Shown piece by piece: positions 24,078 to 56,843 of a DNA stretch of 64,000 nucleotides. This stretch comes from Candidatus Micrarchaeia archaeon. GTDB taxonomy: Archaea; Micrarchaeota; Micrarchaeia; Anstonellales; Bilamarchaeaceae. Numbering within the stretch: the first letter of the stretch is position 1; every line of letters begins with the position of its first letter. The stretch lies in the NCBI GenBank assembly GCA_041653635.1, contig JBAZFC010000001.1:335426-399425 (forward strand). The letters run 5' to 3'. Made by a program: the position numbers and the translations under genes. The notes under the pieces are model-generated. The model worked only from the letters and a program-made list of their open reading frames with translations, was not told the DNA's origin and made no database searches.

Positions 24078-24093
24078 TTACAGGTGTGGGCTC

Positions 24094-33837: not shown

Positions 33838-34632
33838 TTAGATTGTCCTCTTGGGCACGCGTGGGAACAGGTCCTTCGCCGCGTTCTCGTCCACGAATTC
33901 CAGCGCCTTGTTGCAGAGCGGGCAGCGGAAGGAATAATCTGAAGCTGCGGCGAACTCATACATGCTCTCTGTGCCGCATTTCGGGCAGAAATAGTATTCC
34001 GAGCTTGAGATGTCGCCAGGGGCGGCTTCCTTCAATATCTGCTCCTCCACCCAGCTCTTGGTCTTCTCCATGTTGAGGGACCAGAAATATGAGAACCAGC
34101 CCGTTTCCGCGTCCTTGTAGCGGTTGTACTGGACTATGCCCAGGTTATGGAGGCGGTTGAGCGTGGCGCGCACGTCGCTTATCTTTATCTTGAGCTTCTT
34201 TGCGAGATCGTCGTCAGAGAGTTCCTTGGTGAAAGCGCGCATTATGTCAAGGGCGCTCTCGCCCCCGGAATCCACGAGCATCTGGCGCACGCGCGAATTG
34301 GAAAGGACCGCGTCCAGCTCGGCGTTGAGCTTCGGCTCCGGCGCCTTCTTGGGCATCTTGGGGGACGGCACTGGCTTCTTGAGCCTCGCCTTCACGCCGC
34401 CAATCTTTGGCTTGGACCAGGACTTCACCTGCCTTGCCCTTGAGGAGCTTGCCTTTGCTTTTGAGAACCTTGACCTTGCATTGAGGGGCTTTGCCTTGGA
34501 GAGCCTTGCCCTTGATGGCCTCGCCGCGGCCTTGCGGCTGGAAATAGATTTTTTTGGCTTAGAAACCCTGAGATTCCTTCTGCTGGAGGTCTTTTTTCCC
34601 TTAGAAGGACGGCTGGCCCTTGCTGCCATCAT
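33838..34632 (-). CDS. tfe: transcription factor E (TFE/TFIIE-alpha homolog) with Lys/Arg/Ser-rich N-terminal extension
   Basis: Winged-helix region (residues ~105-190) plus zinc ribbon CPKCG...CPLCN; TATA-like element upstream of ATG at 34632 supports the long form with ~95-aa basic extension. Confidence 0.65.
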   Translation of the reverse strand: MMAARASRPSKGKKTSSRRNLRVSKPKKSISSRKAAARPSRARLSKAKPLNARSRFSKAKASSSRARQVKSWSKPKIGGVKARLKKPVPSPKMPKKAPEPKLNAELDAVLSNSRVRQMLVDSGGESALDIMRAFTKELSDDDLAKKLKIKISDVRATLNRLHNLGIVQYNRYKDAETGWFSYFWSLNMEKTKSWVEEQILKEAAPGDISSSEYYFCPKCGTESMYEFAAASDYSFRCPLCNKALEFVDENAAKDLFPRVPKRTI

Positions 34633-35978: not shown

Positions 35979-35996
35979 ATGTAACCATGGTTACAT
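35979..35996. promoter_or_regulatory. 18-bp perfect palindrome ATGTAACCATGGTTACAT (copy 2), ~50 nt upstream of the purF ATG
   Basis: Exact palindrome; about 20 nt upstream of a TATA-like TTTTTAAAAC element. Confidence 0.55.
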
Positions 35997-36045
35997 TTTA
36001 GCCTGGCAAACCTATGTTTTTAAAACAAAAAGGGGAATGTGAAAT

Positions 36046-37464
36046 ATGGAGAAAAGAGAAAGCTGCGGCATAGTCGCTGTGTTATCAAAAAACAACAAGC
36101 CCGTGGCGAATTATATTTACAACGGAATGCTTGCGCTCCAGCACAGGGGGCAGGATGCCGCCGGCATGGCAATCTACGACGGAAAAAAGCTGGTTGAAAA
36201 GAAGGGGCTCGGATTGGTCTCCCGCATATTTTCCGAAAAGGACATGGTGATGAAGGGTGGTATGGGGATTGCGCACACGAGGTACCCGACAACCGACACG
36301 TGCGAAATTGCCGATGTCCAGCCGTCCGTTGTGCAGAAGGCGGGGCTCGCCATTGCGCACAACGGCCACATCGCCAATTATACGGATTTGCGGAAGGAGC
36401 TGGAGAAAAAAGGCGCGAAGTTTGCGGGCACGGTTGATTCCGAAGTTATTGCGCACGTGCTTGCGGATGCGTTTGCTTCTGGGAAGGACATTGAGGGCGC
36501 AGTGAGGCACGCGATGGGCAAGCTGGATGGCTCGTATTCCGTGGTCGCGATAAAGGACGGCGTGCTCTTCGCATTCAGGGACCCGCACGCGATAAGGCCC
36601 TTTGAGCTCGGCGAGAGCGGGGATGCGTATTTTGCCGCATCCGAAACCGTGGCATTTGACATAAACGGGGCGAAGCACGTGGGGACGCTGGGCGGGGGTG
36701 AGATGGCAGTCATAAGCCCTAAGGGATTCCAGAAGAAGATGGTATCGCCATCCACTCATAGGCACTGCATGTTTGAATATGTATATTTCTCAAGGCCGGA
36801 CTCCGTGATAAACAGCGTGGAGGTGCACGAGGCGAGGAGGCGGCTCGGGGCTGCGCTTGCGAGGGAGGCGCCGGTGAAGGCGGACGTGGTCGTGCCGATA
36901 CCGGACACGGCGAGGACGGCTGCGCTTGAGATATCGCGTGTTCTTGGGATACCCTATGAAGAGGGCATAATCAAGAACAGGTATGTGGCGCGCACGTTCA
37001 TCATGCCGGACCAGAAGATGCGCGTGGGCGCGGTCAAGGCGAAATTGAACCCGATAAGGAGCGTTGTGGAAGGCAAAAGCGTAATCGTTGTTGATGACAG
37101 CATCGTCCGGGGGACCACGACCAGGGAGATACTGAAGATGCTTAGGGATGCAGGCGCGAAGGAGATACACATGCGCGTCACGTGCCCGCCGGTGATGCAC
37201 CCGTGTTTCTACGGGGTGGACATGTCCACTTACGAGGAGCTGATTGCCGGCAAGAAAAGCGTGGATGAGATAAGGAAATTCATAGGCGCGGACACGCTGT
37301 ATTATGTTTCATTGGACGGGCTGAAAAAGGCGATAGGGCTGGATCTCTGCACCGGATGCCTGGATGGGGATTACCCGACGGCATACGGAGCTAAGATGGC
37401 GAAGGAGAGGAAGGGCTGCGGAAAGGAAGGAGGAAAGGATTCACATGGCTGTGGCTGCGGTTGA
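36046..37464 (+). CDS. purF: amidophosphoribosyltransferase
   Basis: N-terminal CGIVAV nucleophile motif (Ntn glutamine amidotransferase), PRTase motif VIVVDDSIVRGTT. Confidence 0.9.
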   Translation: MEKRESCGIVAVLSKNNKPVANYIYNGMLALQHRGQDAAGMAIYDGKKLVEKKGLGLVSRIFSEKDMVMKGGMGIAHTRYPTTDTCEIADVQPSVVQKAGLAIAHNGHIANYTDLRKELEKKGAKFAGTVDSEVIAHVLADAFASGKDIEGAVRHAMGKLDGSYSVVAIKDGVLFAFRDPHAIRPFELGESGDAYFAASETVAFDINGAKHVGTLGGGEMAVISPKGFQKKMVSPSTHRHCMFEYVYFSRPDSVINSVEVHEARRRLGAALAREAPVKADVVVPIPDTARTAALEISRVLGIPYEEGIIKNRYVARTFIMPDQKMRVGAVKAKLNPIRSVVEGKSVIVVDDSIVRGTTTREILKMLRDAGAKEIHMRVTCPPVMHPCFYGVDMSTYEELIAGKKSVDEIRKFIGADTLYYVSLDGLKKAIGLDLCTGCLDGDYPTAYGAKMAKERKGCGKEGGKDSHGCGCG

Positions 37465-38989: not shown

Positions 38990-39490
38990 TCAGGGCGTCT
39001 TCTTTAGGCGGTCTTTCTTCACATTCCCCTTAGTGGTTTCCGCCGGGATTCCGATAGGCAGGATGCAGACCGGCCTGCCTTGTTCTTGGAATATCCCCTT
39101 CACCTCTTCATCACTGAACGCACCCACCCATACCGCGCCGAGGCCGAGGTCCGTGGCCGCCAATTGCGCATAGCCCGCGGCGAGGGATGCGTCTATTATG
39201 CAGAATAAATTTCCCCGTTCCCCGTATTTCTTTGAGGAAGACGCCGCATCCGCGAAGAAGACGAACACTGCCGGGGCATCGGAAATGAAACCCTGGTTGA
39301 AGGCGGCCTTTGCGAGCTTTTCCTTAGTTTCTTTTTCAGTAACCAGATAGAAATGGTAGCTCTGCAGGTTGCCTGCGGACGGGGCTAGGTTGGCTGCATC
39401 CTTAATTGTGTCTAGCTGCTTCTGCGCGAGGGGCGAGGGCCTAAACAGCCGCGTGCTCTTCCTTTCCCTTATGAGTTTTTGGAATTCCAT
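38990..39490 (-). CDS. nitroreductase family protein
   Basis: 166 aa; N-terminal RERKSTRLF motif and overall nitroreductase-like pattern. Confidence 0.75.
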   Translation of the reverse strand: MEFQKLIRERKSTRLFRPSPLAQKQLDTIKDAANLAPSAGNLQSYHFYLVTEKETKEKLAKAAFNQGFISDAPAVFVFFADAASSSKKYGERGNLFCIIDASLAAGYAQLAATDLGLGAVWVGAFSDEEVKGIFQEQGRPVCILPIGIPAETTKGNVKKDRLKKTP

Positions 39491-39542
39491 GGCTAAACCG
39501 CCAGCATCAAACTATTTAATCGTTTCACCACATATCAATACT

Positions 39543-42500
39543 ATGAACAAGCACCTGATTTTGCTATTTGCTATTTTTGCAGTGGTTGCCATCCAGGCGG
39601 CTTTTGCCGAAGCGCAGACGAGCTATCCGCGCACATGGGAGGATAGCGGATGGGTTGCGAACAACGAGCACATAATGGACCTGGGCTTCTTTGAGATTTG
39701 GTATAGTGTAGAGCCAACAAACAACATCAGCAGGATGGATGTATTGGGGATCATGCTTCCATTCCATGAAAGCTTAGAAGAGGCGGAGCTTGAGCAACTG
39801 TTGCCGGAATGCCACGGCATCGGCTGCAACTCAAGCTCGGAGCTTGAGAGTGCGTTGCGGCATAAGGAATATGCTGATGGCTTGCTGGATTTCGTACGCA
39901 TCGGAAGCGCCGCATCTACATCCCACCCGGCGTATGACGTCGCTTACGAATGGTACCTAATGCACTATGTGGGGGACTGGAAGGATGCCATGGATTGTTC
40001 ACTACGTGCCGTGGAGAAGGAGGGCGCGGAAGTAAACGGCAGGAGGCTCGCTGTAGAGGCGACTATGGAGGAAGTGGCTAGTTCTGGCATATGTGAATCT
40101 AGGTATTCCGGCCCCGCGAACTGGATATGTTATGCGACTGTGGATGATGTGAGGTGCAACAGCAGCGGGCTGGATGATTCAATCCCTGACATGACCTGGT
40201 ACCCGGCATGCATGAGGACGCATTGGGAAACCGAAACGGTGCTTGGGGAGAAGAACGCCAACATGACCGAAAGCTGGGAGGGGGCGCAGGCAAAACTATC
40301 CGAGCTTGAGGCGTATGCCCTAGACTCCAGGGCGCAGGCGACTGTGCTCATTGACTTGATGACTGCGACAGAACTTGATGGGATAACTGTAAGCGCGGAA
40401 ACCAGCGACATCGGTGGGGTTGCGAGCATAAGTGACGAGTATGCGATCATAAAAAAGGAATATGAAAACGGGAATAAAGCAATGGGGGGTGCGGACACAC
40501 AAGCGAACAGCAGGTCGGATGGATGGTATAAGAAAAAATATGACTCTTATTGGGTGGCTGCCACATATTACGACGACATAGTTGTGAATGGCGCTTTGCT
40601 GTTGGAGGACGCGGAAGCGGTCGTGGCGGATTTTGGAGGTGAGGCGCATGCCGCACTGGCACAGGCGCAGCGCAGCACGAGACTGACCGAGGCGGGGCAG
40701 GCACATCTGGTTGAAGCGGAAATTGCATGCAATTTTGCGGACGCGGAAACAAAGCTCGGCGTCCGGTTCGAGCAATACGGGTCGTGTAGGATGCACGCGC
40801 GGCTTGCGCTGGACGGCACGGACATAGAACAGGCTGCTGAATATGAGGCAGCCGTGCTAGAAGTTGAAAAGCTTATCCAAAATGCGACAACTGATGGGAT
40901 AGACACACGTAATGAGCAGGCGCTCTTCACCATTGTAAAGAACATGAAACCCACAGACGCGGTGGAGATTCTCTCAAGAATCAAATCCAGCATACTCGGA
41001 AAGGCAAGGGTGCTGTATGGGGGCCTGCCTGGAGAAAGGGAAGATGCGAAAGCGCTCATAGAGGGTGGGGGTAGCAGCTTCGCTTACATGAATTCCTGGC
41101 TGGAGAGGGAGGATTGCTATTCGGGAAACGACCTTGATTATGATTGCGCAATCGGTAGCCTGAAGATGATGCACAACGGGTACATGAACATTTTCAATGC
41201 GACCGCCGCCCGGGCTGGTGAAGTGGTGGGCAACGCGATGCTGGTTGATTATTATGAGACTACTACCGCCGCCAGCCTTGACGAAGACAGCGAATACACC
41301 TTGGTTGTGCGGGCCAGAAATACCCTGCCGATGGGAGCGGAGAATGCAGTCATATCAGTTCCAGCCGGCGCGGAGATAGGGAAGATGGACCTTGTTGATG
41401 GAGGCGAGCGCGTGAGGACCGTAGCGTACCAGGACGGGGTCGCGACCATACAGCTTGTGCAGGTTTCGGCTGGAGAAGAAGTGGTGCTTGAATTCAAGAA
41501 AGGGTACCGTCCCTGCGTCGCGTCTGGCATCCGCACCAGCGCGGTCGGGGATGCAATAGGCGGCGCAAAGGTGAGCAGGCAGATGAGCCTTGCCTGTTCA
41601 ATGCAGGTGAACTCAATCAATGTTGGTTCGGGTTTTGATTCTGCGGTGCTGGACGGCACGGCCCACGCAGTCACGGACGGAATACTCAAGGCAAGGATAA
41701 CAAAAGGGACGCATTCCCTGGGCATCGTTGAGCATGTTGCAGACGCGTACGGAATGGACAAGAGCACTGAGTTGGTGACTACAGCCGGGACGATGACGAC
41801 AGTTGCATATATGATAGACATCTCTCCAAAAATGGACCTGGACATGGTTCCAGTATGGGTGGATGAGAGTGGCAAGAGCCCTAGATCTATAGATGTTTTT
41901 GGCTATACTGGGGAGCAAATCAAGAATGTGAAGAAGGACGGTACTGGGGTAGTCTATTTTGAGATAAACGGCTTAGAAGCGGACAAGCTGGCTAAGGTGC
42001 GGGTGAGGTACGAATTCTCCAATATCAGCAGCTATGTTGGGGATAGGATTGATGAGTTGGAGGGTGTGAATATGGGCGGCGAGGCGAGGGCGCTCCTGGG
42101 CAATGCGTCAAACCTTTATGCAGCAGGCGATTACGCAGGTGCCCTGGCTGCGCTGCAGAGCACCGAATCCCAGATTGAGAAAGACGCGAAAGCTGCCGTA
42201 AAGGTGGCTGCGAAGGATAGTGAATTGAGAGCAGAAATTTCAGAGAAGGCGGCAGAACTGCGGGGTGCAATCAACATCGGCGAGGATAATGGTGTGGGTA
42301 GCCAATACCTCCCAGAGATGCGTGCAAGGCTCAGTGTATTGGAAGGCGCGCTTGCACAGAACCTGAGTGTGGGAGCGACCTCCAGCCCGCTTGAGGATGT
42401 GGATTTGGGATGGGAAGGAAAAGAAATAACCAAGATACAGAAATATGTCAAGGACAACGAGGCGAAGATAAAAAAGGATTGGATGGCGATTGGTGTTGAT

Positions 42501-43250
42501 GACGCAAACCTGAGCAGCGCCATTTCAGGGCTTGAGGCACAGGGTGCCGTGTTCTCTGGCACTATGACGCTAGAGGATGGAATGCTCGCACTTGCCGCGC
42601 TGGAAAATGCACAGGATGCGCTTGATGCCCTTAAGGTGAGGGAAGGGGCAAAGGATGCGGTAGAGCGTTCAGCACTATCCAATCTTATAGCCGGAGCCAA
42701 TAGTGTGCTTTCCGAATACGAGGATGAGTATTCAGACCTGCCGTCTGGAGACAGCATGCTCTCGCTCTTTGAAAAGAAGCCGAATGAGATAAAGACGCGG
42801 CTGACGGCACTGAACCGCAGCACCAATACTGATGCCGCAATGGTGGAGGCGGCGCAGCTTAAGGCGGACATGGAGAGCGTGCTCGGTTTCCTTAATGGGG
42901 AAGGGCTGCGAATGATTGCTTCTGCCACTGACCTTTACACCGAATCAAAGGCTACGCTGGGGGAGGATGAAAAACAGGATGTGGAAAACTCCCTGGAAAT
43001 GGCCAACGATTACCTTGACAGCGGCAGATTTGTGAAATCCATCCTGGCAAGCGAGAACACAATCAGCAAGTTGAATGGTGCGGAGTCGGTGGATAACGGG
43101 TTACTTGTTCTTGCCCTCACTGCGCTCCTAGTTATTGGTGCCGTGGCGCTATTGCTATTCCGGAAAGGCAATGTTTGGCCATCAGGAAGTGGTAGGAACA
43201 AACCGAGTTTGAGGAAGCTGAAGAAAATTGAGGTTGATGAATTCGACTGA
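39543..43250 (+). CDS. large cell-surface protein (~1235 aa), signal peptide + C-terminal TM anchor; possible S-layer/adhesin
   Basis: Start at MNKHLILLFAIFAVVAIQAAFA (track ORF from 39369 overlaps the nitroreductase gene); C-terminal hydrophobic helix LLVLALTALLVIGAVALLLF followed by basic tail; many N-glycosylation sequons. Confidence 0.6.
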   Translation: MNKHLILLFAIFAVVAIQAAFAEAQTSYPRTWEDSGWVANNEHIMDLGFFEIWYSVEPTNNISRMDVLGIMLPFHESLEEAELEQLLPECHGIGCNSSSELESALRHKEYADGLLDFVRIGSAASTSHPAYDVAYEWYLMHYVGDWKDAMDCSLRAVEKEGAEVNGRRLAVEATMEEVASSGICESRYSGPANWICYATVDDVRCNSSGLDDSIPDMTWYPACMRTHWETETVLGEKNANMTESWEGAQAKLSELEAYALDSRAQATVLIDLMTATELDGITVSAETSDIGGVASISDEYAIIKKEYENGNKAMGGADTQANSRSDGWYKKKYDSYWVAATYYDDIVVNGALLLEDAEAVVADFGGEAHAALAQAQRSTRLTEAGQAHLVEAEIACNFADAETKLGVRFEQYGSCRMHARLALDGTDIEQAAEYEAAVLEVEKLIQNATTDGIDTRNEQALFTIVKNMKPTDAVEILSRIKSSILGKARVLYGGLPGEREDAKALIEGGGSSFAYMNSWLEREDCYSGNDLDYDCAIGSLKMMHNGYMNIFNATAARAGEVVGNAMLVDYYETTTAASLDEDSEYTLVVRARNTLPMGAENAVISVPAGAEIGKMDLVDGGERVRTVAYQDGVATIQLVQVSAGEEVVLEFKKGYRPCVASGIRTSAVGDAIGGAKVSRQMSLACSMQVNSINVGSGFDSAVLDGTAHAVTDGILKARITKGTHSLGIVEHVADAYGMDKSTELVTTAGTMTTVAYMIDISPKMDLDMVPVWVDESGKSPRSIDVFGYTGEQIKNVKKDGTGVVYFEINGLEADKLAKVRVRYEFSNISSYVGDRIDELEGVNMGGEARALLGNASNLYAAGDYAGALAALQSTESQIEKDAKAAVKVAAKDSELRAEISEKAAELRGAINIGEDNGVGSQYLPEMRARLSVLEGALAQNLSVGATSSPLEDVDLGWEGKEITKIQKYVKDNEAKIKKDWMAIGVDDANLSSAISGLEAQGAVFSGTMTLEDGMLALAALENAQDALDALKVREGAKDAVERSALSNLIAGANSVLSEYEDEYSDLPSGDSMLSLFEKKPNEIKTRLTALNRSTNTDAAMVEAAQLKADMESVLGFLNGEGLRMIASATDLYTESKATLGEDEKQDVENSLEMANDYLDSGRFVKSILASENTISKLNGAESVDNGLLVLALTALLVIGAVALLLFRKGNVWPSGSGRNKPSLRKLKKIEVDEFD

Positions 43251-43252
43251 AG

Positions 43253-44752
43253 TCAGAAATCGCCTAGTCGGGACTGCCCTTTAGCCTGCACTGGAGCATC
43301 TTTTTGTATTTTGCTTTCTGGGGAGAACCTCTTCCTTTCCATTTCCTTCTGTAAAGAGAGGAGGATCTCCTTCATCTTCTGTTCCCGTTTCCTTGAGGCC
43401 CAGAAGTAGTATTCATCTCGCGTGGCGCGCGTCATCAGGACATGCACCGAGCCGTCCTTGAACCTGCCTGCGCGGCCCCTGCGTTGTATGGAGCGGATTT
43501 CGCTGGGTATGGGCTCAAAGAATATGACTGAGTCCACTGCTGGGATGTCAAGGCCCTCCTCCCCAATGGAGCTTGCAATCAATATTTTGAACTCATCTTT
43601 CCGGAACGCGTCCATTGTCTCCTCTTGCATCTTCCTTGTGAAGCCGTCCCGCTTGCCCACGAATATCTTTGAGGAAAACCCGTTCGCGTCCAACACCTCT
43701 TTTATCCTTGTTATCTGGTCCCGGTATTGCACGAACAGGATTACCTTGCTGCCTTTCATTGAAGAGAGGAGGGATAGTAATTTCAGGGTTTTGGGGTGGT
43801 CGCCTGCGGATGATAGGATTTTGAATGCAATCACCATCCCCGGGCGTGCCACCAGTGCGGCAGATGTCCTGGAAGCCGAGGATTTCAGTTTTGCGATGTA
43901 ATTCAGCGCAGGGTGCGGCCCTTGTGTCTGCAGCAACTCCTGCAGATGTATTAGGTGTAAAAGGGCGTAATAGTAGGAAAGAAAGGTATATTTTGCTGGG
44001 TGGCGCATCGCCTGCAGCCTGCGGCCGTACAGCATGAATTGTTTCTTTGAAGTTATGGGTGGTTTCTGGTAGCCGTTGCCTAGTTTTTGGGAAAATTCCC
44101 TGATGAGTGTGATTAGTTGGTTGTCGGCTTCCTTCAATTCGGGGGATAAATCCACTGGAATCCACGACGCAGCCAGTTGTTTTGTGTATGGCTGGATTGC
44201 CGCGTCTGTTTCCACCATAATTTCAATGTTGTTTATGTTTAGGTTGGAGAGAACCTCTTTGATCCTTGCCCTGTCCCCACCAGGAGAGGCGGTGAGTGCT
44301 AGGGAAATGCAGTTTTGCGGCAGGCTTCCGGCGATGGGAACGTACGCGTAATCCCCCACTGCACGATGCGCTTCATCAAAAACAGCCAACGAGGTGTTTT
44401 TCGCAGGGTAAATCCCATTCTTCAGGTCGTTTTTGATTGTTTGGGGGGTAGAAACGAATATCTTTGCTGTGTACAGGGCGGCGCGCTTCTTTTCATTAAC
44501 TTCCCCAGTCACTAGGGAGATGTCCTCGGGGCCAACACCTAAAATTTTTTGTATTGTAAGATAGTGCTGCCTGGCCAATGGTTTGGTTGGTGTCAGGAAC
44601 AGGGATTTCCCTACAGAAAATAAGTTTTCTTTTATCAATGCAAGTGCGATGTGTGTCTTTCCAAGGCCAGTTGGAAGGACAACTAAAGTGCTGCCGTTCC
44701 GCTTCACAGATTCCACAATCTGGGACTGGTAGGGTCGCAGGTCTAACTCCAT
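43253..44752 (-). CDS. superfamily-2 DEAD/DEAH-box helicase, Hef/FANCM-like helicase domain without nuclease domain
   Basis: Walker A LPTGLGKT, DEAH box FDEAHRAVGDY, motif VI QRRGRAGR; start at MELDLRPYQ (44752) preceded by AT-rich promoter-like sequence. Confidence 0.75.
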   Translation of the reverse strand: MELDLRPYQSQIVESVKRNGSTLVVLPTGLGKTHIALALIKENLFSVGKSLFLTPTKPLARQHYLTIQKILGVGPEDISLVTGEVNEKKRAALYTAKIFVSTPQTIKNDLKNGIYPAKNTSLAVFDEAHRAVGDYAYVPIAGSLPQNCISLALTASPGGDRARIKEVLSNLNINNIEIMVETDAAIQPYTKQLAASWIPVDLSPELKEADNQLITLIREFSQKLGNGYQKPPITSKKQFMLYGRRLQAMRHPAKYTFLSYYYALLHLIHLQELLQTQGPHPALNYIAKLKSSASRTSAALVARPGMVIAFKILSSAGDHPKTLKLLSLLSSMKGSKVILFVQYRDQITRIKEVLDANGFSSKIFVGKRDGFTRKMQEETMDAFRKDEFKILIASSIGEEGLDIPAVDSVIFFEPIPSEIRSIQRRGRAGRFKDGSVHVLMTRATRDEYYFWASRKREQKMKEILLSLQKEMERKRFSPESKIQKDAPVQAKGQSRLGDF

Positions 44753-44853
44753 ATAAACATAAATTATGAGAAGAGAATATAATGGGAGGGGAGGGTGTGT
44801 TTCCACTAATATATCTTCGTATGATATGATAAATGATATGAATTTAAAGTAAT

Positions 44854-44869
44854 TGTAACCATGGTTACA
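44854..44869. promoter_or_regulatory. 16-bp perfect palindrome TGTAACCATGGTTACA (copy 3), between the Hef-like helicase start and the pepA 3' end
   Basis: Exact palindrome in an AT-rich intergenic region. Confidence 0.5.
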
Positions 44870-45132
44870 TTGTGATTGAATGTTGGTTTATCTATACGAC
44901 ATAAAAACGGCTTTACGGAATTATAACCGAGTCAAACGCGTCTTTTATTACAACCTAAATCGCAGGGGGTTGAACAAATATTACTGGAAAACAAAATCCG
45001 TCCTTGTTGTGCCCGATAATCTAGGGCATGTTGTGGATCCTTTTTTCAAAGAGTACTCAAAATTCCTCATAGTTTACAAAATAAAATGCCGTGAAATAAA
45101 GGAACTGAAATAGTGGAAATGGGGGGCGTCCC

Positions 45133-46636: not shown

Positions 46637-47206
46637 CTACCGCATCCTATTAATCTTCATAGGGTTGCCTTCAGCACGCGAGCCGGCAGGCACGTCCCCA
46701 TTCACGAACGTCATTGCCGAAACGACCGCGCCTTCCCCTATCTCAACGCCCGCGAGCACCGTCGCGTTAGCGCCCACCAGGGCGCCCCTCCCCACCACAG
46801 TCCTGCCGGTGCGAAGTTCATTCTGCAGGAACTCGTGCGCGAGTATCGTCGCGTTGTACCCTATTATGCATTCATCCCCAAGCTCAATCAGCTCCGGGTA
46901 AAAGACATCAAACATCGCCATGAGCCCAACCGCCGCGCCCTTCCCCACTTTCATGCCGGTCATGCGCAGCAGCGCCCTCTTCATCGCGAGCGATGGCGCG
47001 TACCTTGAGAGCTGCACCAACACAAAATTATACACGACCCTTATTGGATTGCGGAACCGCGTCCATTGGTTGAGTGAATTGCTTCCCGAGACTTTCAGGG
47101 ACTTCAGCTTCCTCAAATATCCACCTAGAATTTGGATTCTATATGCTCCACAGCATTCCTGAATATCCTCAGGCCCTCGCCAACCTTCGTGGCGCCGCGC
47201 GTCCAT
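46637..47206 (-). CDS. hexapeptide-repeat acetyltransferase (left-handed beta-helix family)
   Basis: Imperfect hexapeptide repeats (IGYNATIL, VGRGALVGANATVLAGVEIGEGAVV); the ATG at 47206 would overlap purQ by ~80 nt, so the start is uncertain. Confidence 0.55.
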   Translation of the reverse strand: MDARRHEGWRGPEDIQECCGAYRIQILGGYLRKLKSLKVSGSNSLNQWTRFRNPIRVVYNFVLVQLSRYAPSLAMKRALLRMTGMKVGKGAAVGLMAMFDVFYPELIELGDECIIGYNATILAHEFLQNELRTGRTVVGRGALVGANATVLAGVEIGEGAVVSAMTFVNGDVPAGSRAEGNPMKINRMR

Positions 47207-47901
47207 GCCGGATGGTTCGTGAAATGGTTGTACGCCTCCGGGTGCGGCATGAGCCCGAATATCCTGCCGCTCTCATCGCAGATGCCGGCAACACCGCCCA
47301 CCGAGCCGTTCGGGTTGTAAGGATATTCATCAATTTTGCCTTCCGGGCTGACATATTGGCATGCAATCGTGTTCTTGCCGACCATCTCTCCCAAGACTTC
47401 GCGCCCTGACGGTATGAACCTCCCCTCACCATGCCTCACTGGAAGGTCCATGTACGCTATCCCCTTAGTGAAGACGCACGGGCTCTTCTGGTTCATCGCC
47501 AGCCGTACCCACCTATCTTCAAACTTTCCAGACGCATTGTAAGTAAGAGTCACGCGCTGCGTGAAATCCGGCACAGGAAGCAGCCCCATCTTCACCAGCG
47601 CCTGGAAGCCGTTGCATATCCCCAGCACAAGCTTCCCACCCTTCACGAATTCTGAGATTTCCCCGCCAGCCCTGTGCCTCAACCTGTTCGCGAGAACCCT
47701 AGCCGAGCCGAGGTCGTCCCCGAACGAAAAGCCGCCGGGCAGGATGAGCATGTTGTAATCCCGGAGCAGCGACGGAGAGTCGGTCACTTCGCTCACATGC
47801 CTTATGTCTGCCTCGCCCCCCGAGGTGCGCATAGCATACGCGGTCTCATGGGGGCAGTTTATGCCGTACCCATCAAGCACGATGGCCTTCGCCTTCACCA
47901 T
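47125..47901 (-). CDS. purQ: phosphoribosylformylglycinamidine synthase, glutaminase subunit PurQ
   Basis: Class I glutamine amidotransferase pattern: LILPGGFSFGDD, nucleophile GICNGFQAL, LMPHPE near C-terminus; start MVKAKAIVLDG. Confidence 0.85.
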   Translation of the reverse strand: MVKAKAIVLDGYGINCPHETAYAMRTSGGEADIRHVSEVTDSPSLLRDYNMLILPGGFSFGDDLGSARVLANRLRHRAGGEISEFVKGGKLVLGICNGFQALVKMGLLPVPDFTQRVTLTYNASGKFEDRWVRLAMNQKSPCVFTKGIAYMDLPVRHGEGRFIPSGREVLGEMVGKNTIACQYVSPEGKIDEYPYNPNGSVGGVAGICDESGRIFGLMPHPEAYNHFTNHPAWTRGATKVGEGLRIFRNAVEHIESKF

Positions 47902-50876
47902 TTCAACCCCCCGCTCCACGCGTCGCGCAGCTCAAAGACGTCCTCGTTCACAAGTGCGTTGTCGCCGTTCCTCAGCACCACCCGCTTGTCCCCGCGCACC
48001 CTTCCCGCCTTCTTTGTTTTGGTGCCGAACATCATCTTCTCAAACTTGAACGCGTCCTTCTCGCGCACGCTCACAATGAACCTGCCCGCGCTTTCCGAGA
48101 ACAGGAGCGCCGCATCCTCGTCCGTGTCCTTGCTTATCAGCGAAAGGTCCATTTCCGCACCGACCTTGCCGCCCATCGCGCATTCCGCGAAAGCCGCCGC
48201 AAGCCCGCCATCTGAAACGTCGTGCACGCTCCGTATGGTGCCCCGTTCCATCGCCTTGGAAAGCGCGGCATAGAGTTCGGAGTTCTCCTTCACCCTGACC
48301 TTGGGCATCCCCGCGCCCACGCCGCCGTGCAGCTTGAAATATTCGCTCCCGCCCATCTCGTGGTGCGTCGTGCCGAGCACGTAAATGGCGTCCCCGACCT
48401 CCTTGAAGTCCGAGCTCGCTATCTTAGTAACATCCTCAACTTTCCCCACCACGGTGACCAGCAGCGTTGGGTTTATGGAGTGCTTGCTGTCCCCCGAATA
48501 ATAGTCATTCTTCATGCTGTCTTTTCCGGATATTATCGGGGTCCCGTATCCCACTGCCGCATCATGCATCCCCCTCGCCGCCCTCACGAGCTGCGCAAGC
48601 TTGAAGTCCCCATCGGGATTGCGCGGCCCCTTTATCGGGTCGGGCCAGCAGAAATTGTCCAGGCAGGCGAGATAGCCGAACTTCGCCCCGCACGCGATTG
48701 CGTTCCGCACGCCCTCATCCACGGCGTTCATCGCCATGTGGTATGCATCTTCCGTATATCTCGGGCAAACCCCGTGCGCGACCGCCAGCCCGCCGTTCAT
48801 TCCCAATATGGGCCTGAACACGCCGCCGTCCGAAGGGGCGTTCCCCTCCATGAGCGGCTTGAGCGCGCTCCCCCCCTGCACCTCGTGGTCGTACTGCCGT
48901 ATCACCCATTCCTTTGACGCGATGTTCGGGGACGCGAGCAGCGCCTTCAGCGCCTCGCCGTGCTGCATCAGCGGCCTGCCCGGCGGGATAGGCATCCTGT
49001 CCTTCCACACCGCCTTGAGATGCATCTGTGGGACGCCCTCGTGCAGGAATTGCATATCCACATACGCGACAGTGCTCTTTCCGTAGAGGATGTGGAACTT
49101 CCCGCTATCCGTGAATGTCCCCGCTATGCTTGCCTCCACACCATGCTTCTTCGCCAGCTTCTCTATTCCCGGCATCTTTTCCGCCGGCACCGCGAGCGTC
49201 ATCCTCTCCTGCGATTCCGAAAGCAGTATCTCCCACGGGTCCAGCCCGGGGTATTTCAGCGGGCACTTGTCCAGATGGACCTCGCAACCGCCGCTGAGCT
49301 GCGCCAGCTCGCCTATGCTTGAAGAAAGCCCGCCGGCCCCGTCGTCCGTGACCGCTTCGAACAGCCCGAGGTCCCTCGCCTCAAGCACCATGTCTATGAC
49401 TTTTTTCTGTGTTATCGGGTCGCCTATCTGCACCACGCTGCCAGCTATTCCCGTCGTAAGCTGCTGTGAAGAGAAAGTCGCCCCATGAATCCCATCCTTC
49501 CCTATTCTCCCACCGACCATCACCGCAAGGTACCCTGGTTCTATCTTCTTCCTCGCCGTCTCCCTGCCGCCTATCTCGTGCGGCATCATCCCCACCGTTC
49601 CCGCATACACGAGCGGCCTCGCCGTGTAGCATTTCTCAAACACGACCGAGCCATTAACCGTCGGAATCCCGACCATGTTCCCGCCGTGCTCTATACCCCT
49701 CACGACGCCCTTCGCAATCCTCTGCGGATGCAGGCATCCCTTTGGCACATCTTTCTCGTCCAGGTAGCCGAAACACAGCACGTTTATGTTCGCGATGGGC
49801 TTCGCGCCCATACCTGTCCCCAGCACGTCCCTGTTCACGCCGAGTATTCCAGTGAGCGCGCCCCCGTACGGGTCCAGCGCCGAAGGGGCGTTGTGCGTCT
49901 CCACCTTCACCGCGATGTCGTTCTCATGGTCAAACCGGATTATGCCGCCGTTGTCCTTGAACACCGAGACCACGTACGGCTTCCGCACCTCATCCGTTGC
50001 GGAGCGGATGTATGTCTTGAATATGGAATCTATCTTCTCTTCCCTCCCCTCAACTCCTTCACCTTCCTCCGAATAATCTATTTTGGCGTTGAATATCTTG
50101 TGCTTGCAGTGCTCGCTCCAGGACTGCGCCAGGGCCTCCAGCTCAACGTCGGTCGCGCCCTTGCCCAACCCCATTTTTTCCCGTTCCTTCCGCACCGCCG
50201 CCTTGGCGTAGTGCGCCTTTATCTCGCGCATCTCCTCCAGGGAAAGGGCGAGCGTCCGCTCGCGGCTGATTTTCACCAGCTCCTCGTCCGGAACCTGGAG
50301 GTCTATCTCCTCGGCGACCGGGGCATGGTCCAGCTCCACGCGCGGAATGTACGGCTCAAACGCGCCGCTCTCCGGCTCGTAAACCTTCCATGCCTGTATC
50401 ACTTCGTTCGCCAGCAGCTTCTTCGCTATTTCCGCCAGCACGGAATCGTCGTCAAAATCCGCCCTTATCGCATACACCCGCGACGTGTATGCCTCCACCT
50501 CCTTTCCGAGCACGTCCCTTACTCCCTCAACCGCGGTGTTCCCCTCGTTGTCGGTCATCCCGGGTAGGAAGCCCACCTCTATCCTCCAGTAATCAGGATA
50601 GAACGGCGCCTTGAATGAGAACTCCTCGGAAACGGCGTCGGCGAAAAGCTCCTTGCCCAGCTTCTCCATCTCCCCATCCGAAAGTTCGCCGTAGAAATTG
50701 TATGCGCGCACGATGGCGACGTCGGTTGGCTTCACGCCTGCGAGCTCTGCTATCTTCTTTGCCAGAGGGGCGGCGCCGGGGTCTCTAAGGTCGCCTTTTG
50801 GCCTTACCTCTATGCGCCGCGCACCAAGAGGAAGGGGGAGCCCCCCCTTCTCTTTAGGGTAATCATAACCCCCCAT
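47895..50876 (-). CDS. purL: phosphoribosylformylglycinamidine synthase PurL with N-terminal PurS-like extension (PurSL-type)
   Basis: 993 aa; tandem PurM-like/AIRS domains typical of PurL; N-terminal ~80 aa resembles PurS; immediately upstream of purQ. Confidence 0.8.
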   Translation of the reverse strand: MGGYDYPKEKGGLPLPLGARRIEVRPKGDLRDPGAAPLAKKIAELAGVKPTDVAIVRAYNFYGELSDGEMEKLGKELFADAVSEEFSFKAPFYPDYWRIEVGFLPGMTDNEGNTAVEGVRDVLGKEVEAYTSRVYAIRADFDDDSVLAEIAKKLLANEVIQAWKVYEPESGAFEPYIPRVELDHAPVAEEIDLQVPDEELVKISRERTLALSLEEMREIKAHYAKAAVRKEREKMGLGKGATDVELEALAQSWSEHCKHKIFNAKIDYSEEGEGVEGREEKIDSIFKTYIRSATDEVRKPYVVSVFKDNGGIIRFDHENDIAVKVETHNAPSALDPYGGALTGILGVNRDVLGTGMGAKPIANINVLCFGYLDEKDVPKGCLHPQRIAKGVVRGIEHGGNMVGIPTVNGSVVFEKCYTARPLVYAGTVGMMPHEIGGRETARKKIEPGYLAVMVGGRIGKDGIHGATFSSQQLTTGIAGSVVQIGDPITQKKVIDMVLEARDLGLFEAVTDDGAGGLSSSIGELAQLSGGCEVHLDKCPLKYPGLDPWEILLSESQERMTLAVPAEKMPGIEKLAKKHGVEASIAGTFTDSGKFHILYGKSTVAYVDMQFLHEGVPQMHLKAVWKDRMPIPPGRPLMQHGEALKALLASPNIASKEWVIRQYDHEVQGGSALKPLMEGNAPSDGGVFRPILGMNGGLAVAHGVCPRYTEDAYHMAMNAVDEGVRNAIACGAKFGYLACLDNFCWPDPIKGPRNPDGDFKLAQLVRAARGMHDAAVGYGTPIISGKDSMKNDYYSGDSKHSINPTLLVTVVGKVEDVTKIASSDFKEVGDAIYVLGTTHHEMGGSEYFKLHGGVGAGMPKVRVKENSELYAALSKAMERGTIRSVHDVSDGGLAAAFAECAMGGKVGAEMDLSLISKDTDEDAALLFSESAGRFIVSVREKDAFKFEKMMFGTKTKKAGRVRGDKRVVLRNGDNALVNEDVFELRDAWSGGLKW
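50839..50876. repeat. 38-nt exact repeat, copy A (covers the purL start codon and first 12 codons)
   Basis: AGCCCCCCCTTCTCTTTAGGGTAATCATAACCCCCCAT identical to 52610..52647. Confidence 0.8.
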
Positions 50877-50928
50877 AGCGCGTTCTTGTTGGGCAAAATA
50901 TATAACACTTATTTATTGTGCGGGTGGA

Positions 50929-50946
50929 ATGTAACCATGGTTACAT
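50929..50946. promoter_or_regulatory. 18-bp perfect palindrome ATGTAACCATGGTTACAT (copy 4), between divergent purL and the hypothetical gene at 50995
   Basis: Exact palindrome ~20 nt upstream of TATA-like elements on both strands. Confidence 0.55.
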
Positions 50947-50994
50947 AGTGTGTGAAACAGGGTTTTATTAAGATTTCATGGCATAATAAGAGCC

Positions 50995-53002: not shown

Positions 53003-53932
53003 ATGGCCGCGGACCTGACGCTTGCCGGCATCGTAGTAAGCCTATCCATAATACTCTCAGGCCTGCTCATAGGCCTCGGCAAGACCATCGGCTCCAAGCG
53101 CGTTGAGCACTTCGGCGAGGAAGAGCTGGTCCAGTCCGCGATAAACGCCGCCCTCGTGGGCGCCTACGCCGCCATCATCTCTATTGCCAGCGAGGTGAGC
53201 AAGGGAATCGCGGAGGGGCAGACATGCGTCGCCGGCGACGCGCTTGAGAACCTCCAGTGCATCTTCTCCAATTTATCCGCCGACATCTTCCAGCTCCTCA
53301 CCCAGGCAATCAACCTCCACCAGATAGTCTCCTATTACCAGTCCATAACGCTGGAGTTCGCAACCTTCTCCATCCAGCCGATGTCCCACCTCTCATCCAT
53401 CCAGTCCATACTCGGAGGGCAGATTCTCACGCTGCAGGCGCTCCTCACGCTCGCCCAGCTCCAGGTGCAGATACTCGCCTTCTTTGCCCCGCAGCTCCTC
53501 ACCTTCTTCCTCCCGCTCGGCCTCATCTTCCGCTCCTTCTTCTCCACGCGCAAGCTCGGCGGCTTCCTCATCGCGCTCTCCATCGGAATATATCTCTTCT
53601 ACCCCGCGTTCATCCTCATCTTCCCGGCGCCCCAGTTCAACGTCACGGCCGCCAACCTCACCAACCTCACCAACACCTCCCTTTACACCACGGTCCCGAT
53701 ACTTGACCTGAACGACAACTACGCCATCGCCAGCAGGTTCGACAACATGACCACCGGCGACTTCACCGGAGACCTCACGCTCGCCACCCAGCAGATAAGC
53801 GCCTCCATCGCCTCGCTCTCCATGTTCGTGATGCTCGCGCCCCTGTTTTCGCTCCTCATAACAGTCATATTCATAAAGGAGGTCACCGACATATTCGGCG
53901 GTGAATTCTTCTTCGCGGTGAGTTCCCTATGA
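53003..53932 (+). CDS. polytopic membrane protein (VirB6/CedA-like channel candidate)
   Basis: 309 aa, about five hydrophobic helices, extracytoplasmic region with several N-x-S/T sequons; 4-nt overlap with the next gene. Confidence 0.5.
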   Translation: MAADLTLAGIVVSLSIILSGLLIGLGKTIGSKRVEHFGEEELVQSAINAALVGAYAAIISIASEVSKGIAEGQTCVAGDALENLQCIFSNLSADIFQLLTQAINLHQIVSYYQSITLEFATFSIQPMSHLSSIQSILGGQILTLQALLTLAQLQVQILAFFAPQLLTFFLPLGLIFRSFFSTRKLGGFLIALSIGIYLFYPAFILIFPAPQFNVTAANLTNLTNTSLYTTVPILDLNDNYAIASRFDNMTTGDFTGDLTLATQQISASIASLSMFVMLAPLFSLLITVIFIKEVTDIFGGEFFFAVSSL

Positions 53933-54708
53933 TACAGAACCGAATGGTAACCATGATGGCGCTTGCTGGCGGGCTTGCAGCCCTTGTGATGGCGATAGTG
54001 CTGTGGAGCCCGATATTCTCCGCGCTCGCCGGCTTCTTTTTCGCCCTCTCCCTGATGGTCTGGAAATACGGCTACCTCCTGATTCCGTACATAACAAAAG
54101 CCGGACGCATAGTAGAAATCCGCGGCGGCTACGAAATCCCGCCCACCCGCGACTGCATCATAAAAAAATCGGGCAACGGCTTCTACTCCACGAAATTCCT
54201 TGAAATCCGCTATTATGAGAGCACGGTGGACAAGAGCACGCAGGACCGCTCGTCCATGCTCGCCTCGTTTGAGAAGGCGCTCGCCTCGCTCAAGAACACA
54301 GTTAAAATCTCGCTCCTAGTCTCGGAAGTTGACCTCACAAAAGAAATAGACGAGCTGAAGACGCGCAGGAGCTCCGCCGAGAACAAGCGCAGGAAACTCC
54401 CGCCCAACAGCGAGGAGCTCGTCCGCCTTGACCGCGAAATCGCGATGTACAACCGCCAGCTTGAGCGCATCACCCGCGGCGACCGCCCGCTCGTGCTCAC
54501 GTCCTTCGTCTCCACCACCGCATACGGCGTCACTAGGGAGGAGGCGCTCTCCAAGGTGCGCAGGCAGGCGAAGGAGGTCAAGACCATCGTATCCTCCACC
54601 CTTGGCGCGGACGTCGTTGACCTGTTTGACCTTGACATGATAAGGTGCTTCGAATGGGAGTTCTTCCTCCCGCCGGAGGTGGAACAGCTTAAGGATGAGG
54701 TATTCTAG
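53929..54708 (+). CDS. membrane-anchored protein (N-terminal TM hairpin + soluble domain; possible VirB3/VirB4-N-like part)
   Basis: 259 aa; two N-terminal TM helices then charged soluble domain; ends with TAG immediately followed in the same frame by the ATG of the ATPase gene. Confidence 0.5.
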   Translation: MIQNRMVTMMALAGGLAALVMAIVLWSPIFSALAGFFFALSLMVWKYGYLLIPYITKAGRIVEIRGGYEIPPTRDCIIKKSGNGFYSTKFLEIRYYESTVDKSTQDRSSMLASFEKALASLKNTVKISLLVSEVDLTKEIDELKTRRSSAENKRRKLPPNSEELVRLDREIAMYNRQLERITRGDRPLVLTSFVSTTAYGVTREEALSKVRRQAKEVKTIVSSTLGADVVDLFDLDMIRCFEWEFFLPPEVEQLKDEVF

Positions 54709-56145
54709 ATGGATGTGCAGAAGCTCAACGTCTCCGACCTCTCAAAGCGCCTCTTCCTGGTGCATCCCCCAGAGCCCCGCCCCGACTCCCTCATCTCCTC
54801 CGTGAATGAGGGCATATACATCGGCAAGACGCGCTGGCTCAACGTCCCCGTCTTCTGGAACTTCAAGAAGCTGATTAACCCGCACGTCGCCATCGTCGGC
54901 ATAACCGGCTCGGGCAAATCCTACCTCGTGAAAACCTTCCTCACCCGCGCCTCGCTCATCTGGAACTCCAACGCAATAATCCTTGACTGGGTTGGCGAAT
55001 ACGACAAATGGGTGAAGCAGGCTGGGGGCACGGTCCTCCACCTTGGGGAGGAACACCTCAACCTCATGGACCTCGCGGGGCTCACGCCCTCCGAGCGCAC
55101 GAAGCAGATAATGTCCGCCCTGGAAATCCTTCTTGACCTGCACAACTTCCCAGCGGAGCGCAACGACATTGAGGAGGCGATAGAGGACACGTACGCGGGC
55201 GTGAAGAACCCCACCCTCAGCAACGTCGTTGAAATGCTGGAGAAAGGAAGGAAGAAATCCGCGGCGCGCCTGCTCAAGCACTTCACCACCCAGGGCAGCG
55301 ACTTCTTCGCGAAGCCCTCCACGCTCGCGATGGAGAAGCTCACCAACTCCGGGCTCATGTGCATAGACCTGCACTCCCTCCCAACCGAGGAGATGCGCTC
55401 GCTAGCCGGCCTCACAATCCTGCAGTTCCTCAAGGAAAAAATGCGCAGGGAGGAGATGAAGGAGGAGAAGGGCGTCCGCCTCTTCGTCGTGGTTGATGAG
55501 GCGTGGAAGATTGCGAGCGACGAAAGGAGCGACGTCATCACGATAGTGAGGGAGGGGAGGAAATACAACTTCGCCCTCATAGTCGCGTCCCAAAACCCGA
55601 CGGACATGCACAAGACAATCTTCAGCAACGTCGGCACGATGTTCATCCTGCGCCTCATCCTGAGGGAGTTCAAAGACTACGTCCGCCAGTCCCTCAGCTA
55701 CTCGGATTACATAGATTCTGAGATTTCCAAGTTCGGCGTCGGGGACGCCGCAATGAACATGATATTCTCAAAACGCACCAGCGGCTCGCACACCTTCCTG
55801 CTCAACAAGATTGACGGGGAGGAGCCGCTTTTCATTTATGCGCTGGAGGTTGATGGCATGTCTGTTGAGAAGGAAAGGGAACAGTTCTGCAATATGCTCT
55901 ACGAGCTCGGGCTCACGGACGAGCAGATAGGGCTCGTGAAGAACGAGTTTGAGAGGAATGACGGCACTATGGACGCCACCGCGTTCGTGTCGCTGCTGGA
56001 AAAGTTCGGCTATTCGCCCTCGTCAATAATGGGCTTCCTGCGCCAGCTGGAGGTGGACGAGAAGGACATAGTTGAGATATTCTCCCTTGCGAGGAGGAGG
56101 AAGGCCACCAAGGGGCTGGTTGACCTCACCCTTACGGAGGAATAA
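54709..56145 (+). CDS. P-loop ATPase of the VirB4/TraC/CedB/HerA-like (DUF87-type) class
   Basis: Walker A AIVGITGSGKSYLV, Walker B RLFVVVDEAWKIA, downstream IVASQNP. Confidence 0.7.
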   Translation: MDVQKLNVSDLSKRLFLVHPPEPRPDSLISSVNEGIYIGKTRWLNVPVFWNFKKLINPHVAIVGITGSGKSYLVKTFLTRASLIWNSNAIILDWVGEYDKWVKQAGGTVLHLGEEHLNLMDLAGLTPSERTKQIMSALEILLDLHNFPAERNDIEEAIEDTYAGVKNPTLSNVVEMLEKGRKKSAARLLKHFTTQGSDFFAKPSTLAMEKLTNSGLMCIDLHSLPTEEMRSLAGLTILQFLKEKMRREEMKEEKGVRLFVVVDEAWKIASDERSDVITIVREGRKYNFALIVASQNPTDMHKTIFSNVGTMFILRLILREFKDYVRQSLSYSDYIDSEISKFGVGDAAMNMIFSKRTSGSHTFLLNKIDGEEPLFIYALEVDGMSVEKEREQFCNMLYELGLTDEQIGLVKNEFERNDGTMDATAFVSLLEKFGYSPSSIMGFLRQLEVDEKDIVEIFSLARRRKATKGLVDLTLTEE

Positions 56146-56147: not shown

Positions 56148-56843
56148 ATGGAAGAGATAATCCGCATAAGCACGAAAAGGAAAAGGCCGCTTAAGCCGCT
56201 GCTCCAGACGCTCGGCTCATTCGGGTTCACGAAGGTGGATTACTCCGACGAGGCCCTCATAATAGAGAAGGTGGAGTCCGAGGACCTGAACGGCAAGCCA
56301 TACCTCTATTACCATCTTGAGCTGCTCAAGGGCGCAATAGTATTCAAATACACCGTGCCGACGCTCGAAAACAAAACGTCGCGCATGCTGGAGATGGGCC
56401 TCCTGCTCATGAACCTCTTCCAGCTCCTCACCGCGTATTACGACGTGCCGGTGCAGGCCGCCTACCCGCTCTATTTCCCGCTGCTCAAATCCCTCTCCGA
56501 GTCCATGGACAAGGAGAAGCTGGAAACGTATTCCGAGCTCAAGGACCTCAGGCAGAAGCACAACTCCCTGGAGCGCAAGTACAACGACCTTGTCCAGGCG
56601 AGCGCGCAGAACGCGCGCATCCTCGTTGAATATGAGAGGAAGAACGAAGACCTCGGCGACAGGGTGAAGAAGCTGGAGGGCGTTGGCGACATGGAGATGC
56701 AGGGCCAGCTATTTGAATGGGTGCGCACCCACGACGGCGAGATAGATGTGCTGGAGTTCTCCCGCCTCAACAACATCGCCGTGGGCAGGGTGGAAGAGGG
56801 CCTTGACGCCCTCATAAAGAACGGGTTCATAAGGAAAAGGTAG
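56148..56843 (+). CDS. hypothetical coiled-coil protein with C-terminal winged-helix-like domain
   Basis: 231 aa; central heptad-like charged region, C-terminal VLEFSRLNNIAVGRVEEGLDALIKNGFI; last gene of the membrane operon (2-nt gap from ATPase). Confidence 0.45.
   Translation: MEEIIRISTKRKRPLKPLLQTLGSFGFTKVDYSDEALIIEKVESEDLNGKPYLYYHLELLKGAIVFKYTVPTLENKTSRMLEMGLLLMNLFQLLTAYYDVPVQAAYPLYFPLLKSLSESMDKEKLETYSELKDLRQKHNSLERKYNDLVQASAQNARILVEYERKNEDLGDRVKKLEGVGDMEMQGQLFEWVRTHDGEIDVLEFSRLNNIAVGRVEEGLDALIKNGFIRKR

Follow-up and report, generated by a model that had tools for sequence, protein, structure and literature searches.

What is an 18-bp palindrome doing between two genes that read away from each other, and why does the same sequence stand before a second gene of purine synthesis? 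The question arises at the purL locus of a Candidatus Micrarchaeia archaeon, in a stretch of 64,000 nucleotides (contig JBAZFC010000001.1, positions 335,426 to 399,425 of the forward strand) that we call the window and to which all coordinates refer. The initial annotation of the window had noted that a palindrome between the purL start and an open reading frame (ORF) at 50995 is the same as one upstream of purF, and had read it as a site controlling both divergent promoters. The palindrome is indeed present at 50929-50946, as an exact copy of that upstream of purF. In the present analysis 139 distinct sites were compared, and loci are designated by L-numbers. We consider it probable that the palindrome is the site of a dimeric, sequence-specific regulator specific to Micrarchaeia, which would co-regulate purSL and the divergent ORF, serve a wider regulon and have as its candidate a protein of 77 amino acids (aa) encoded in the same window. 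The elements of the locus are the following.

50929-50946, unstranded: 18-bp palindrome ATGTAACCATGGTTACAT, the putative upstream site common to the divergent purSL and 301-aa ORF promoters
47895-50876, minus strand: purSL, a PurS-PurL fusion (FGAM synthase subunit, 993 aa; TIGR01736 PurL, E = 1.5e-168)
47125-47919, minus strand: purQ (NF002252, E = 6.8e-64), overlapping the 3' end of purSL
50896-50905, minus strand: TATA-like box of purSL, AAATATATAA (minus-strand reading TTATATATTT), a block kept in L112 and L218
50963-50972, plus strand: TATA-like box of the 301-aa ORF, TTTTATTAAG, kept in L112, L218 and L215
50995-51900, plus strand: 301-aa ORF, divergent from purSL, with the palindrome in common

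The palindrome is a perfect dyad, whose centre lies about 61 bp from the ATG of purL and about 57 bp from that of the 301-aa ORF. The ATG of purSL occupies 50876-50874, and the PurS-like match is N-terminal, at residues 98-166 of the product; purQ is presumably in one transcription unit with purSL, judging by the overlap of the two genes. The identities given earlier to purL and purF, and the reality of the divergent gene, were borne out by hidden Markov model matches and by the codon-position pattern. The 301-aa ORF has no match in Pfam or NCBIfam and six homologues only, and its AlphaFold2 (AF2) model was unusable (predicted local distance difference test score, pLDDT, 36.6). Its substitutions decrease from the third to the first to the second codon position, and on this pattern it is a real, fast-evolving gene. 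As the regulator it was rejected, since it has no domain and so few homologues against a class-wide motif.

Both A/T-rich boxes that had been named as lying about 20 nt from the palindrome are in place. AAATATATAA is separated from the palindrome by 23 nt and from the purL ATG by 19 nt, a geometry of the leaderless type that matches the consensus promoter of the sites described below. For TTTTATTAAG the gaps are 16-17 nt on the palindrome side and 22 nt on the side of the ATG at 50995. In the space that separates the palindrome from TTTTATTAAG, at 50950-50962, there is a conserved block GTGTGAAA(n)GGG, found in the same place in L112, L218 and L215, which may be a second promoter element. The palindrome itself is kept at the orthologous position between purL and the 301-aa ORF in L112, L218 and L215, where the flanks have diverged, and it is also found upstream of purL in L049, L064, L121, L180 and L211. 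purL keeps it even where the divergent partner gene differs. The parallel that had been drawn with the purF site extends to conservation, the site being kept at the orthologous purL, 301-aa ORF and purF promoters.

How many such sites does the window hold, and are they more than chance would place there? A search allowing up to three mismatches returned four copies, beginning at 24061, 35979, 44853 and 50929. Two of them match exactly, and the other two deviate at the outermost base only; the mismatch-tolerant search found none in the window with two or three mismatches. The mean over 100 dinucleotide-preserving shuffles was 0.01 copies, and no shuffle reached four. When the window was searched with GTAAC-N4-GTTAC and one mismatch was allowed, the same four copies were returned. 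The three further copies and the genes next to them are listed here.

24061-24078, unstranded: palindrome copy TTGTAACCATGGTTACAT before thrS, directly after the secD stop codon, an atypical position
24094-25998, plus strand: thrS, threonine-tRNA ligase (NF003068, E = 1.7e-246), adjoining the atypical copy
35979-35996, unstranded: identical copy of the 18-bp palindrome upstream of purF, with a TATA-like box TTTTTAAAA at 36017-36025 and the ATG at 36046
36046-37464, plus strand: purF, amidophosphoribosyltransferase (TIGR01134, E = 2.7e-145)
44853-44870, unstranded: palindrome copy TTGTAACCATGGTTACAT at the 77-aa gene, between a TATA-like box at 44841-44849 and the ATG at 44880
43253-44806, minus strand: Hef-type helicase, helicase part only (NF010337, E = 5.7e-142), divergent from the 77-aa gene
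44880-45113, plus strand: 77-aa basic protein (isoelectric point, pI, 9.9) with a predicted ferredoxin/Cas2-like fold, the candidate factor

The copy at 44853-44870 lies, on its other side, 46 nt upstream of the GTG (44806) of the Hef helicase. The four copies fall within 27 kb and have no sequence in common beyond about 20 bp, so they are not copies of a dispersed repeat or of a mobile element; an origin of that kind was rejected, the flanks being unrelated and the window containing no tandem or CRISPR arrays. Two of the copies stand just after stop codons, those of secD and nreA, and the thrS copy is probably transcribed, with a Shine-Dalgarno-like (SD-like) motif after it. Such placements would suit an element acting at the RNA level, with a hairpin serving as a terminator, a processing site or a leader. 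However, the palindrome hairpin does not exceed shuffled sequence in stability (z = 0.59), the palindrome has no match in Rfam, and the copy at 50929-50946, being upstream of both divergent TATA boxes, would not be transcribed. It is also the sequence and not the pairing that is conserved, as the outer A/T asymmetry breaks a pair in two of the four copies. A role in RNA is thus extremely improbable.

If the palindrome acts as DNA, how widely is it found? A scan for the exact 16-mer core, with one genome per species, gave at least 116 loci. At least 68 of these come from at least 25 metagenome-assembled genomes (MAGs) of Micrarchaeota/Micrarchaeia/Anstonellales, with G+C fractions of 0.32-0.60, and the 48 bacterial matches among those listed are about what chance would yield for a sequence of 16 bases in 596 Gb. 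Of the archaeal half-sites, 94% have A or T at the flanking position -1, whereas the bacterial matches have no such preference. A metagenome scan contributed at least 120 further loci, about 60 of them Micrarchaeia-like, including one (L214) identical to the window. The window DNA is about 75-86% identical to several motif-bearing MAGs, and these keep the orthologous sites at purF, Hef, thrS and purL. Across orders the half-site ATGTAAC is invariant and the central four bases vary as YATR (CATG, TATA, CATA). In other orders CTATAG or CCATAG takes the place of the CCATGG centre, with the half-sites kept, and because the centre varies in this way it is not the functional element. The 18-mer is also carried by seven viral contigs, none of which encodes a protein of the 77-aa type. 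The motif string was not found in the literature searched, nor was anything found there on Micrarchaeota promoter motifs or Cas2-like regulators. On its conservation and placement, the palindrome is probably a previously undescribed regulatory DNA site, conserved across Micrarchaeia and presumably bound by a protein.

Where do the sites stand relative to genes? Nearly all of them are intergenic. The gap between the edge of the 16-mer and the outward-reading gene's start codon has its sharp maximum at 37 and 38 nt, with 12 cases at each value, and these 24 promoters represent about 14 unrelated gene families. When promoters are aligned on the ATG, the consensus consists of the palindrome, an A-rich AAAAC (-37 to -32) resembling the transcription factor B recognition element (BRE), TTaaAA (-30 to -24) and the ATG. 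This spacing would be the canonical archaeal spacing of BRE and TATA box if the transcripts are leaderless. Two other groups have the palindrome further upstream, at 45-55 nt and at 57-69 nt, with no change in the distance between TATA box and ATG; in the window, purF (50), purL (53), the 301-aa ORF (49) and Hef (47) fall into the group at 45-55 nt. At purL, the 301-aa ORF and purF, the palindrome is about 16-23 nt upstream of the TATA boxes. The site-to-start distances gave a significant Rayleigh test for helical phasing only through the 36-39 nt peak (p 0.3-0.5 without it), and a periodicity of about 10 bp, lost after removal of the main peak, was dropped. The geometry over the 139 sites, together with a location upstream of both TATA boxes, supports what had been proposed at the outset, a transcription-factor site common to the two divergent promoters.

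The same geometry bears on the idea that the palindrome is a DNA site with no part in transcription, for example a parS-type site, a site for replication or recombination, or a target of restriction-modification, given that it contains CCATGG. Near-identical copies of 16-18 bp, almost no degenerate ones, invariance throughout the class and four copies in 27 kb do resemble parS. Yet the 37/38-nt spacing, the abutment on BRE/TATA and the recurring gene set are properties of promoters. The change of the CCATGG centre between orders, with the half-sites staying, shows that it is not the recognised element, and partition or recombinase genes do not recur nearby in the loci of the fetched homologues of the 77-aa protein (see below). 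We hold a non-transcriptional role to be highly improbable.

Then, would binding at this position activate or repress? In the characterised archaeal systems (SurR, TrmBL1, Ptr2, TFB-RF1), activation goes with sites upstream of BRE/TATA, and repression with sites at the TATA box or downstream of it. At purL and the 301-aa ORF, activation is the most likely effect because the site is clear of BRE/TATA and of the start site; for purL, by analogy with these systems, we lean slightly towards activation. The site would comprise the half-site ATGTAAC and the centre YATR, 18-20 bp in all, and would accommodate one dimeric regulator. One dimer at 50929-50946 would co-regulate the back-to-back, leaderless-type promoters of purSL-purQ (minus strand) and the 301-aa ORF (plus strand), and when bound it would aid recruitment of TBP and TFB in the manner of an upstream activating site.

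A pure repressor, similar to PurR, might instead bind beside the BRE, hinder TFB/TBP or bend the DNA, and silence both its targets and its own gene. In the commonest class of promoters the site abuts the BRE, where steric interference with TFB is conceivable. Positions suited to a repressor are occupied at the 77-aa gene (clearly) and at thrS (probably), and bacterial PurR regulons are, as generally known, repressive. The sites of purL, the 301-aa ORF and purF, at the distances from TATA given above, and others at 30-40 nt are, however, too far away for occlusion, and the characterised archaeal upstream sites activate. Repression throughout is therefore unlikely, and we retain activation from upstream sites as the preferred reading for these promoters.

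Which genes would come under such control? The flanking genes were clustered and representatives were scanned against Pfam, the counts given here being loci with the site. Targets in nucleotide synthesis are purL (8), purF (6, plus L241 and L242), purE (4, divergent from RNase P Rpp14), purP (4), purN (3) and carB (2). Those in replication and repair are the Hef helicase (7), PriL (5), DNA ligase (4), a KaiC/RadB-like ATPase (4) and an Lhr-type helicase (2). The site is also found at the aminoacyl-tRNA synthetase genes thrS (5) and hisS (3), at the gene of a PF18894 HExxH peptidase (7), at a triple zinc-ribbon protein (6-7) and at the 301-aa ORF (4), and the singleton targets include proteasome alpha and a TBP-like gene. 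Because carB, primase, ligase, Hef, thrS/hisS and others also carry the site, the regulon is broader than purine synthesis, and on this gene content the predicted regulon ties the supply of nucleotides to the replication and repair of DNA.

One of these targets deserved attention as a possible regulator. The triple zinc-ribbon protein has about 240 aa, three CxxC...CxxC zinc ribbons and a K/E-rich tail, with no Pfam match (L012, 2751-3467; L020, L134, L146, L174, L186, L210). In 7 of 8 loci its gene has the palindrome at the canonical 38-41 nt, the exception being L029. Since it occurs in a single subclade only and has no palindrome in L029, it was taken as a target and rejected as the regulator.

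What protein, then, would bind the palindrome? The gene of the 77-aa protein stands in a particular relation to it. Homologues of 77-81 aa, 40-94% identical, begin 2-10 nt from a palindrome in 14 loci of divergent MAGs, and in all 14 a TATA box (TATATATA or TTTAAA) is found 3-5 nt beyond the other side of the palindrome. The palindrome fills the space between TATA box and start, and is therefore in the classical position of an archaeal auto-operator. The 14 loci had been picked by the presence of a site, hence 10 further homologues were fetched by protein sequence alone. All 10 have a palindrome at most about 50 nt upstream: exact and CATG-centred in four, ATGTAAC-TATA-GTTACAT in four, ATGTAAC-CATA-GTTACAT in one and with two mismatches in one. 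These ten include Ca. Gugararchaeum, Ca. Burarchaeum and Ca. Bilamarchaeum (orders Gugararchaeales and Anstonellales) as well as a 1.37-Mb contig.

The 77-aa protein has no match in Pfam, NCBIfam, PHROGs or the PDB sequences, and its ORF escapes simple ORF filters (for example, at least 90 aa). The family numbers 70 representatives among 1.84 billion proteins and, at 90% identity, 195 clusters. All members with a name come from Micrarchaeia, so that its range matches that of the motif, and the members are uniformly basic, with pI of 9.3-10.4. The AF2 model (pLDDT 92) has a beta-alpha-beta-alpha-beta ferredoxin-like fold resembling Cas2, ACT and RAM, classes that dimerise, although the matches are generic. 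The most conserved residues of the family are N16, R17, K19, R20, F22, Y23 and Y24 in helix 1, and W36-K-T-K-S40; on the model they would suit a surface for contact with nucleic acid. No conventional DNA-binding gene, of the helix-turn-helix (HTH) or ribbon-helix-helix (RHH) type, recurs beside the sites or the 77-aa gene in the loci examined. What makes the 77-aa protein a candidate is the autoregulatory geometry at its gene, the agreement of its taxonomic range with that of the motif and the lack of a recurrent conventional regulator near the sites. On this circumstantial evidence, we put the chance that it binds the palindrome at about even.

The main rival to this assignment leaves the role of the site as described and changes only its binder: a conventional HTH, RHH or zinc-ribbon factor encoded elsewhere would bind the palindrome, and the 77-aa gene would be its most conserved, repressed target. 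The lack of any match of the 77-aa protein to a DNA-binding family in the databases named above, and the generic nature of its fold matches, speak for such a scenario. Moreover, regulators are visible only in the roughly 64 kb of the window and in fragments of each genome, so that most would never be seen, and in 7 of its 8 loci the zinc-ribbon gene does have a site at the canonical spacing of 38-41 nt. But genes of the HTH or RHH type do not recur beside the sites or the small gene, and the zinc-ribbon gene is restricted to its subclade and has no site in L029. The 77-aa gene, in contrast, is the only gene tied to the palindrome across orders (10 of 10), with autoregulatory geometry and the same taxonomic range. 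We regard a conventional factor as somewhat unlikely, yet as an alternative to be taken seriously. Three proteins of HTH type encoded in the window were considered and set aside as regulators, as there is no site nearby and nothing ties them to the motif.

5425-5970: aMBF1/HVO_2718-like protein
20247-20588: weakly MarR_2-like protein
33838-34632: TFE-alpha-like protein

With the 77-aa protein as binder, the scheme can be extended to the whole regulon. The same factor would act at purF and Hef in the window and, in other genomes, at purE, purP, purN, carB, priL, DNA ligase and others. From the operator between TATA box and start, the 77-aa protein would repress its own gene by blocking RNA polymerase. 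The logic would thus be dual and dependent on position, with self-repression on one side and activation of other targets on the other. That the 77-aa protein is a sequence-specific transcription factor of this kind, repressing its own gene and activating a class-wide regulon from upstream sites, is a tentative proposal to which we give a little less than an even chance. It is similarly plausible, if just short of probable, that the factor of the palindrome belongs to a class of very small DNA-binding regulators not described before. The 77-aa factor is possibly an exapted domain of the Cas2/VapD-like kind.

Several observations weigh against this scheme. The start codons and the leaderless transcription on which the spacing argument is built were deduced from ORFs and from the consensus. 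The target counts come from collections seeded by exact-match searches and are lower bounds, biased and incomplete. The thrS copy fits neither the activating geometry nor that of an operator between TATA box and start. In the window it lies 15 nt upstream of the ATG with an SD-like AGGTG between; in five genomes it lies 14-17 nt from the ATG and is followed by an SD-like GGTG, with no upstream TATA box and with differing upstream genes. It may be a roadblock or a repressing site on a read-through transcript. In addition, purF has no site in the more distant lineages L244 and L248, and none in L240, whose close relative L242 has it (7275-7365 in both). Membership of the regulon is therefore lineage-specific and turns over, and the comparison of L240 with L242 makes it appear that sites are gained or lost as whole units.

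The surroundings of the small gene in other genomes were also recorded. In another clade of Micrarchaeia it is divergent from the gene of a PF18894 HExxH 'phage metallopeptidase' (L154, L068, L001, L028, L172), and in L154 (9637, 9797) and L068 (7636, 7797) there are two palindromes about 160 bp apart, one per promoter. The pairing of this peptidase with the small gene recalls the IrrE/DdrO or ImmA/ImmR modules; no such peptidase is encoded in the window. Elsewhere the small gene directly precedes rad50, reads away from the gene of an intein-containing Hef-like helicase, or stands beside that of an RFC-like AAA ATPase (L239, 5001-7553; L245, 6621-10237; L246, 8348-10237). Its neighbourhood is repeatedly one of DNA repair and replication.

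Other features of the window were noted in passing. A 1293-aa ORF with no Pfam match occupies 39369-43250 on the plus strand, and ORFs of about 1225 aa without a Pfam match are found beside the Hef helicase in L241-L243, with a rhomboid protease gene between in L241 and L242. The segment 53003-56843 contains a HerA/DUF87-type ATPase (54709-56145) flanked by ORFs without a family match at 53003-53932, 53929-54708 and 56148-56843. The TFE-alpha-like protein (33838-34632, minus strand) has an N-terminal extension of about 120 aa, and the zinc-ribbon and HTH_3 gene of the HVO_2718/aMBF1-like protein (5425-5970, plus strand) abuts the FEN1 gene. A tRNA of 119 nt at 11431-11549 (plus strand), called by Rfam and not reported by ARAGORN, is possibly an intron-containing tRNA.

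What would these results mean for the organisms concerned? DPANN archaea are mostly uncultivated, with genomes of about 1 Mb and few recognisable regulators, and to our knowledge their gene regulation is essentially uncharted. A precise cis-element, ATGTAAC-YATR-GTTACAT, is now to hand, together with a reconstructed regulon and a named candidate protein. Should that protein bind, it would establish a further family of regulators, new and very small, that bind DNA, and would offer a way into the timing of DNA synthesis in these genome-reduced, obligate symbionts. Otherwise the motif can still serve as bait for the real factor and as a marker for annotating promoters in Micrarchaeia MAGs.

How does the system compare with those already known? 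SurR (GTTn3AAC) and TrmBL1/Tgr (TGM TATCAC-N5-GTGATA) of the Thermococcales are, from general knowledge, alike in having a palindrome upstream of BRE/TATA or between TATA box and start, in autoregulation and in a regulon of several pathways. They are winged-helix or TrmB proteins and have sensor domains; the present candidate is a single-domain protein of 77 aa with a predicted ferredoxin/Cas2 fold, in which neither Pfam nor the AF2 model revealed a winged-helix or TrmB domain. Their regulons concern redox or sugar metabolism and the present one nucleotide synthesis and replication/repair, and motif and lineage differ as well. Ptr2 of Methanocaldococcus and TFB-RF1 of Pyrococcus are alike in that their sites abut or lie upstream of BRE/TATA, as do those of the 37/38-nt class, purL and purF. 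These two factors belong to the Lrp family or are other HTH proteins and use other motifs, and the activation proposed here is deduced from position alone.

The likeness to purine control in bacteria is one of layout. Escherichia coli PurR, a LacI-family protein, recognises the 16-bp PUR box, a palindrome before scattered pur genes, carAB and its own gene. The PUR-box consensus ACGCAAACGTTTGCGT has a central CG, whereas the motif here is TGTAAC-YATR-GTTACA and does not conform to it. The promoters here are archaeal, the site at the pur genes is upstream of the TATA box and not over the promoter, and the regulon includes replication and repair; neither a LacI-family protein nor a phosphoribosyltransferase-type PurR as in Bacillus was seen among the roughly 50 proteins scanned in the 64-kb window. 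With Cas2 the relation lies in structure, the predicted ferredoxin-like fold of the 77-aa protein being superposable on it. By sequence, the 77-aa family has no Cas2 match in Pfam or PDB, and NCBIfam TIGR01573 was matched by only 2 of 49 members (E = 0.037); the neighbours in the 10 fetched loci include no cas families, and the window, as noted, no CRISPR array. The regulon of Halobacterium salinarum TrmB (VNG1451C) includes purine-biosynthesis genes (PMC2710871, PMC4158304). Although this haloarchaeal regulator belongs to the TrmB family, senses sugar and recognises a different motif, it is, like the factor proposed here, an archaeal factor acting over purine synthesis and other pathways.

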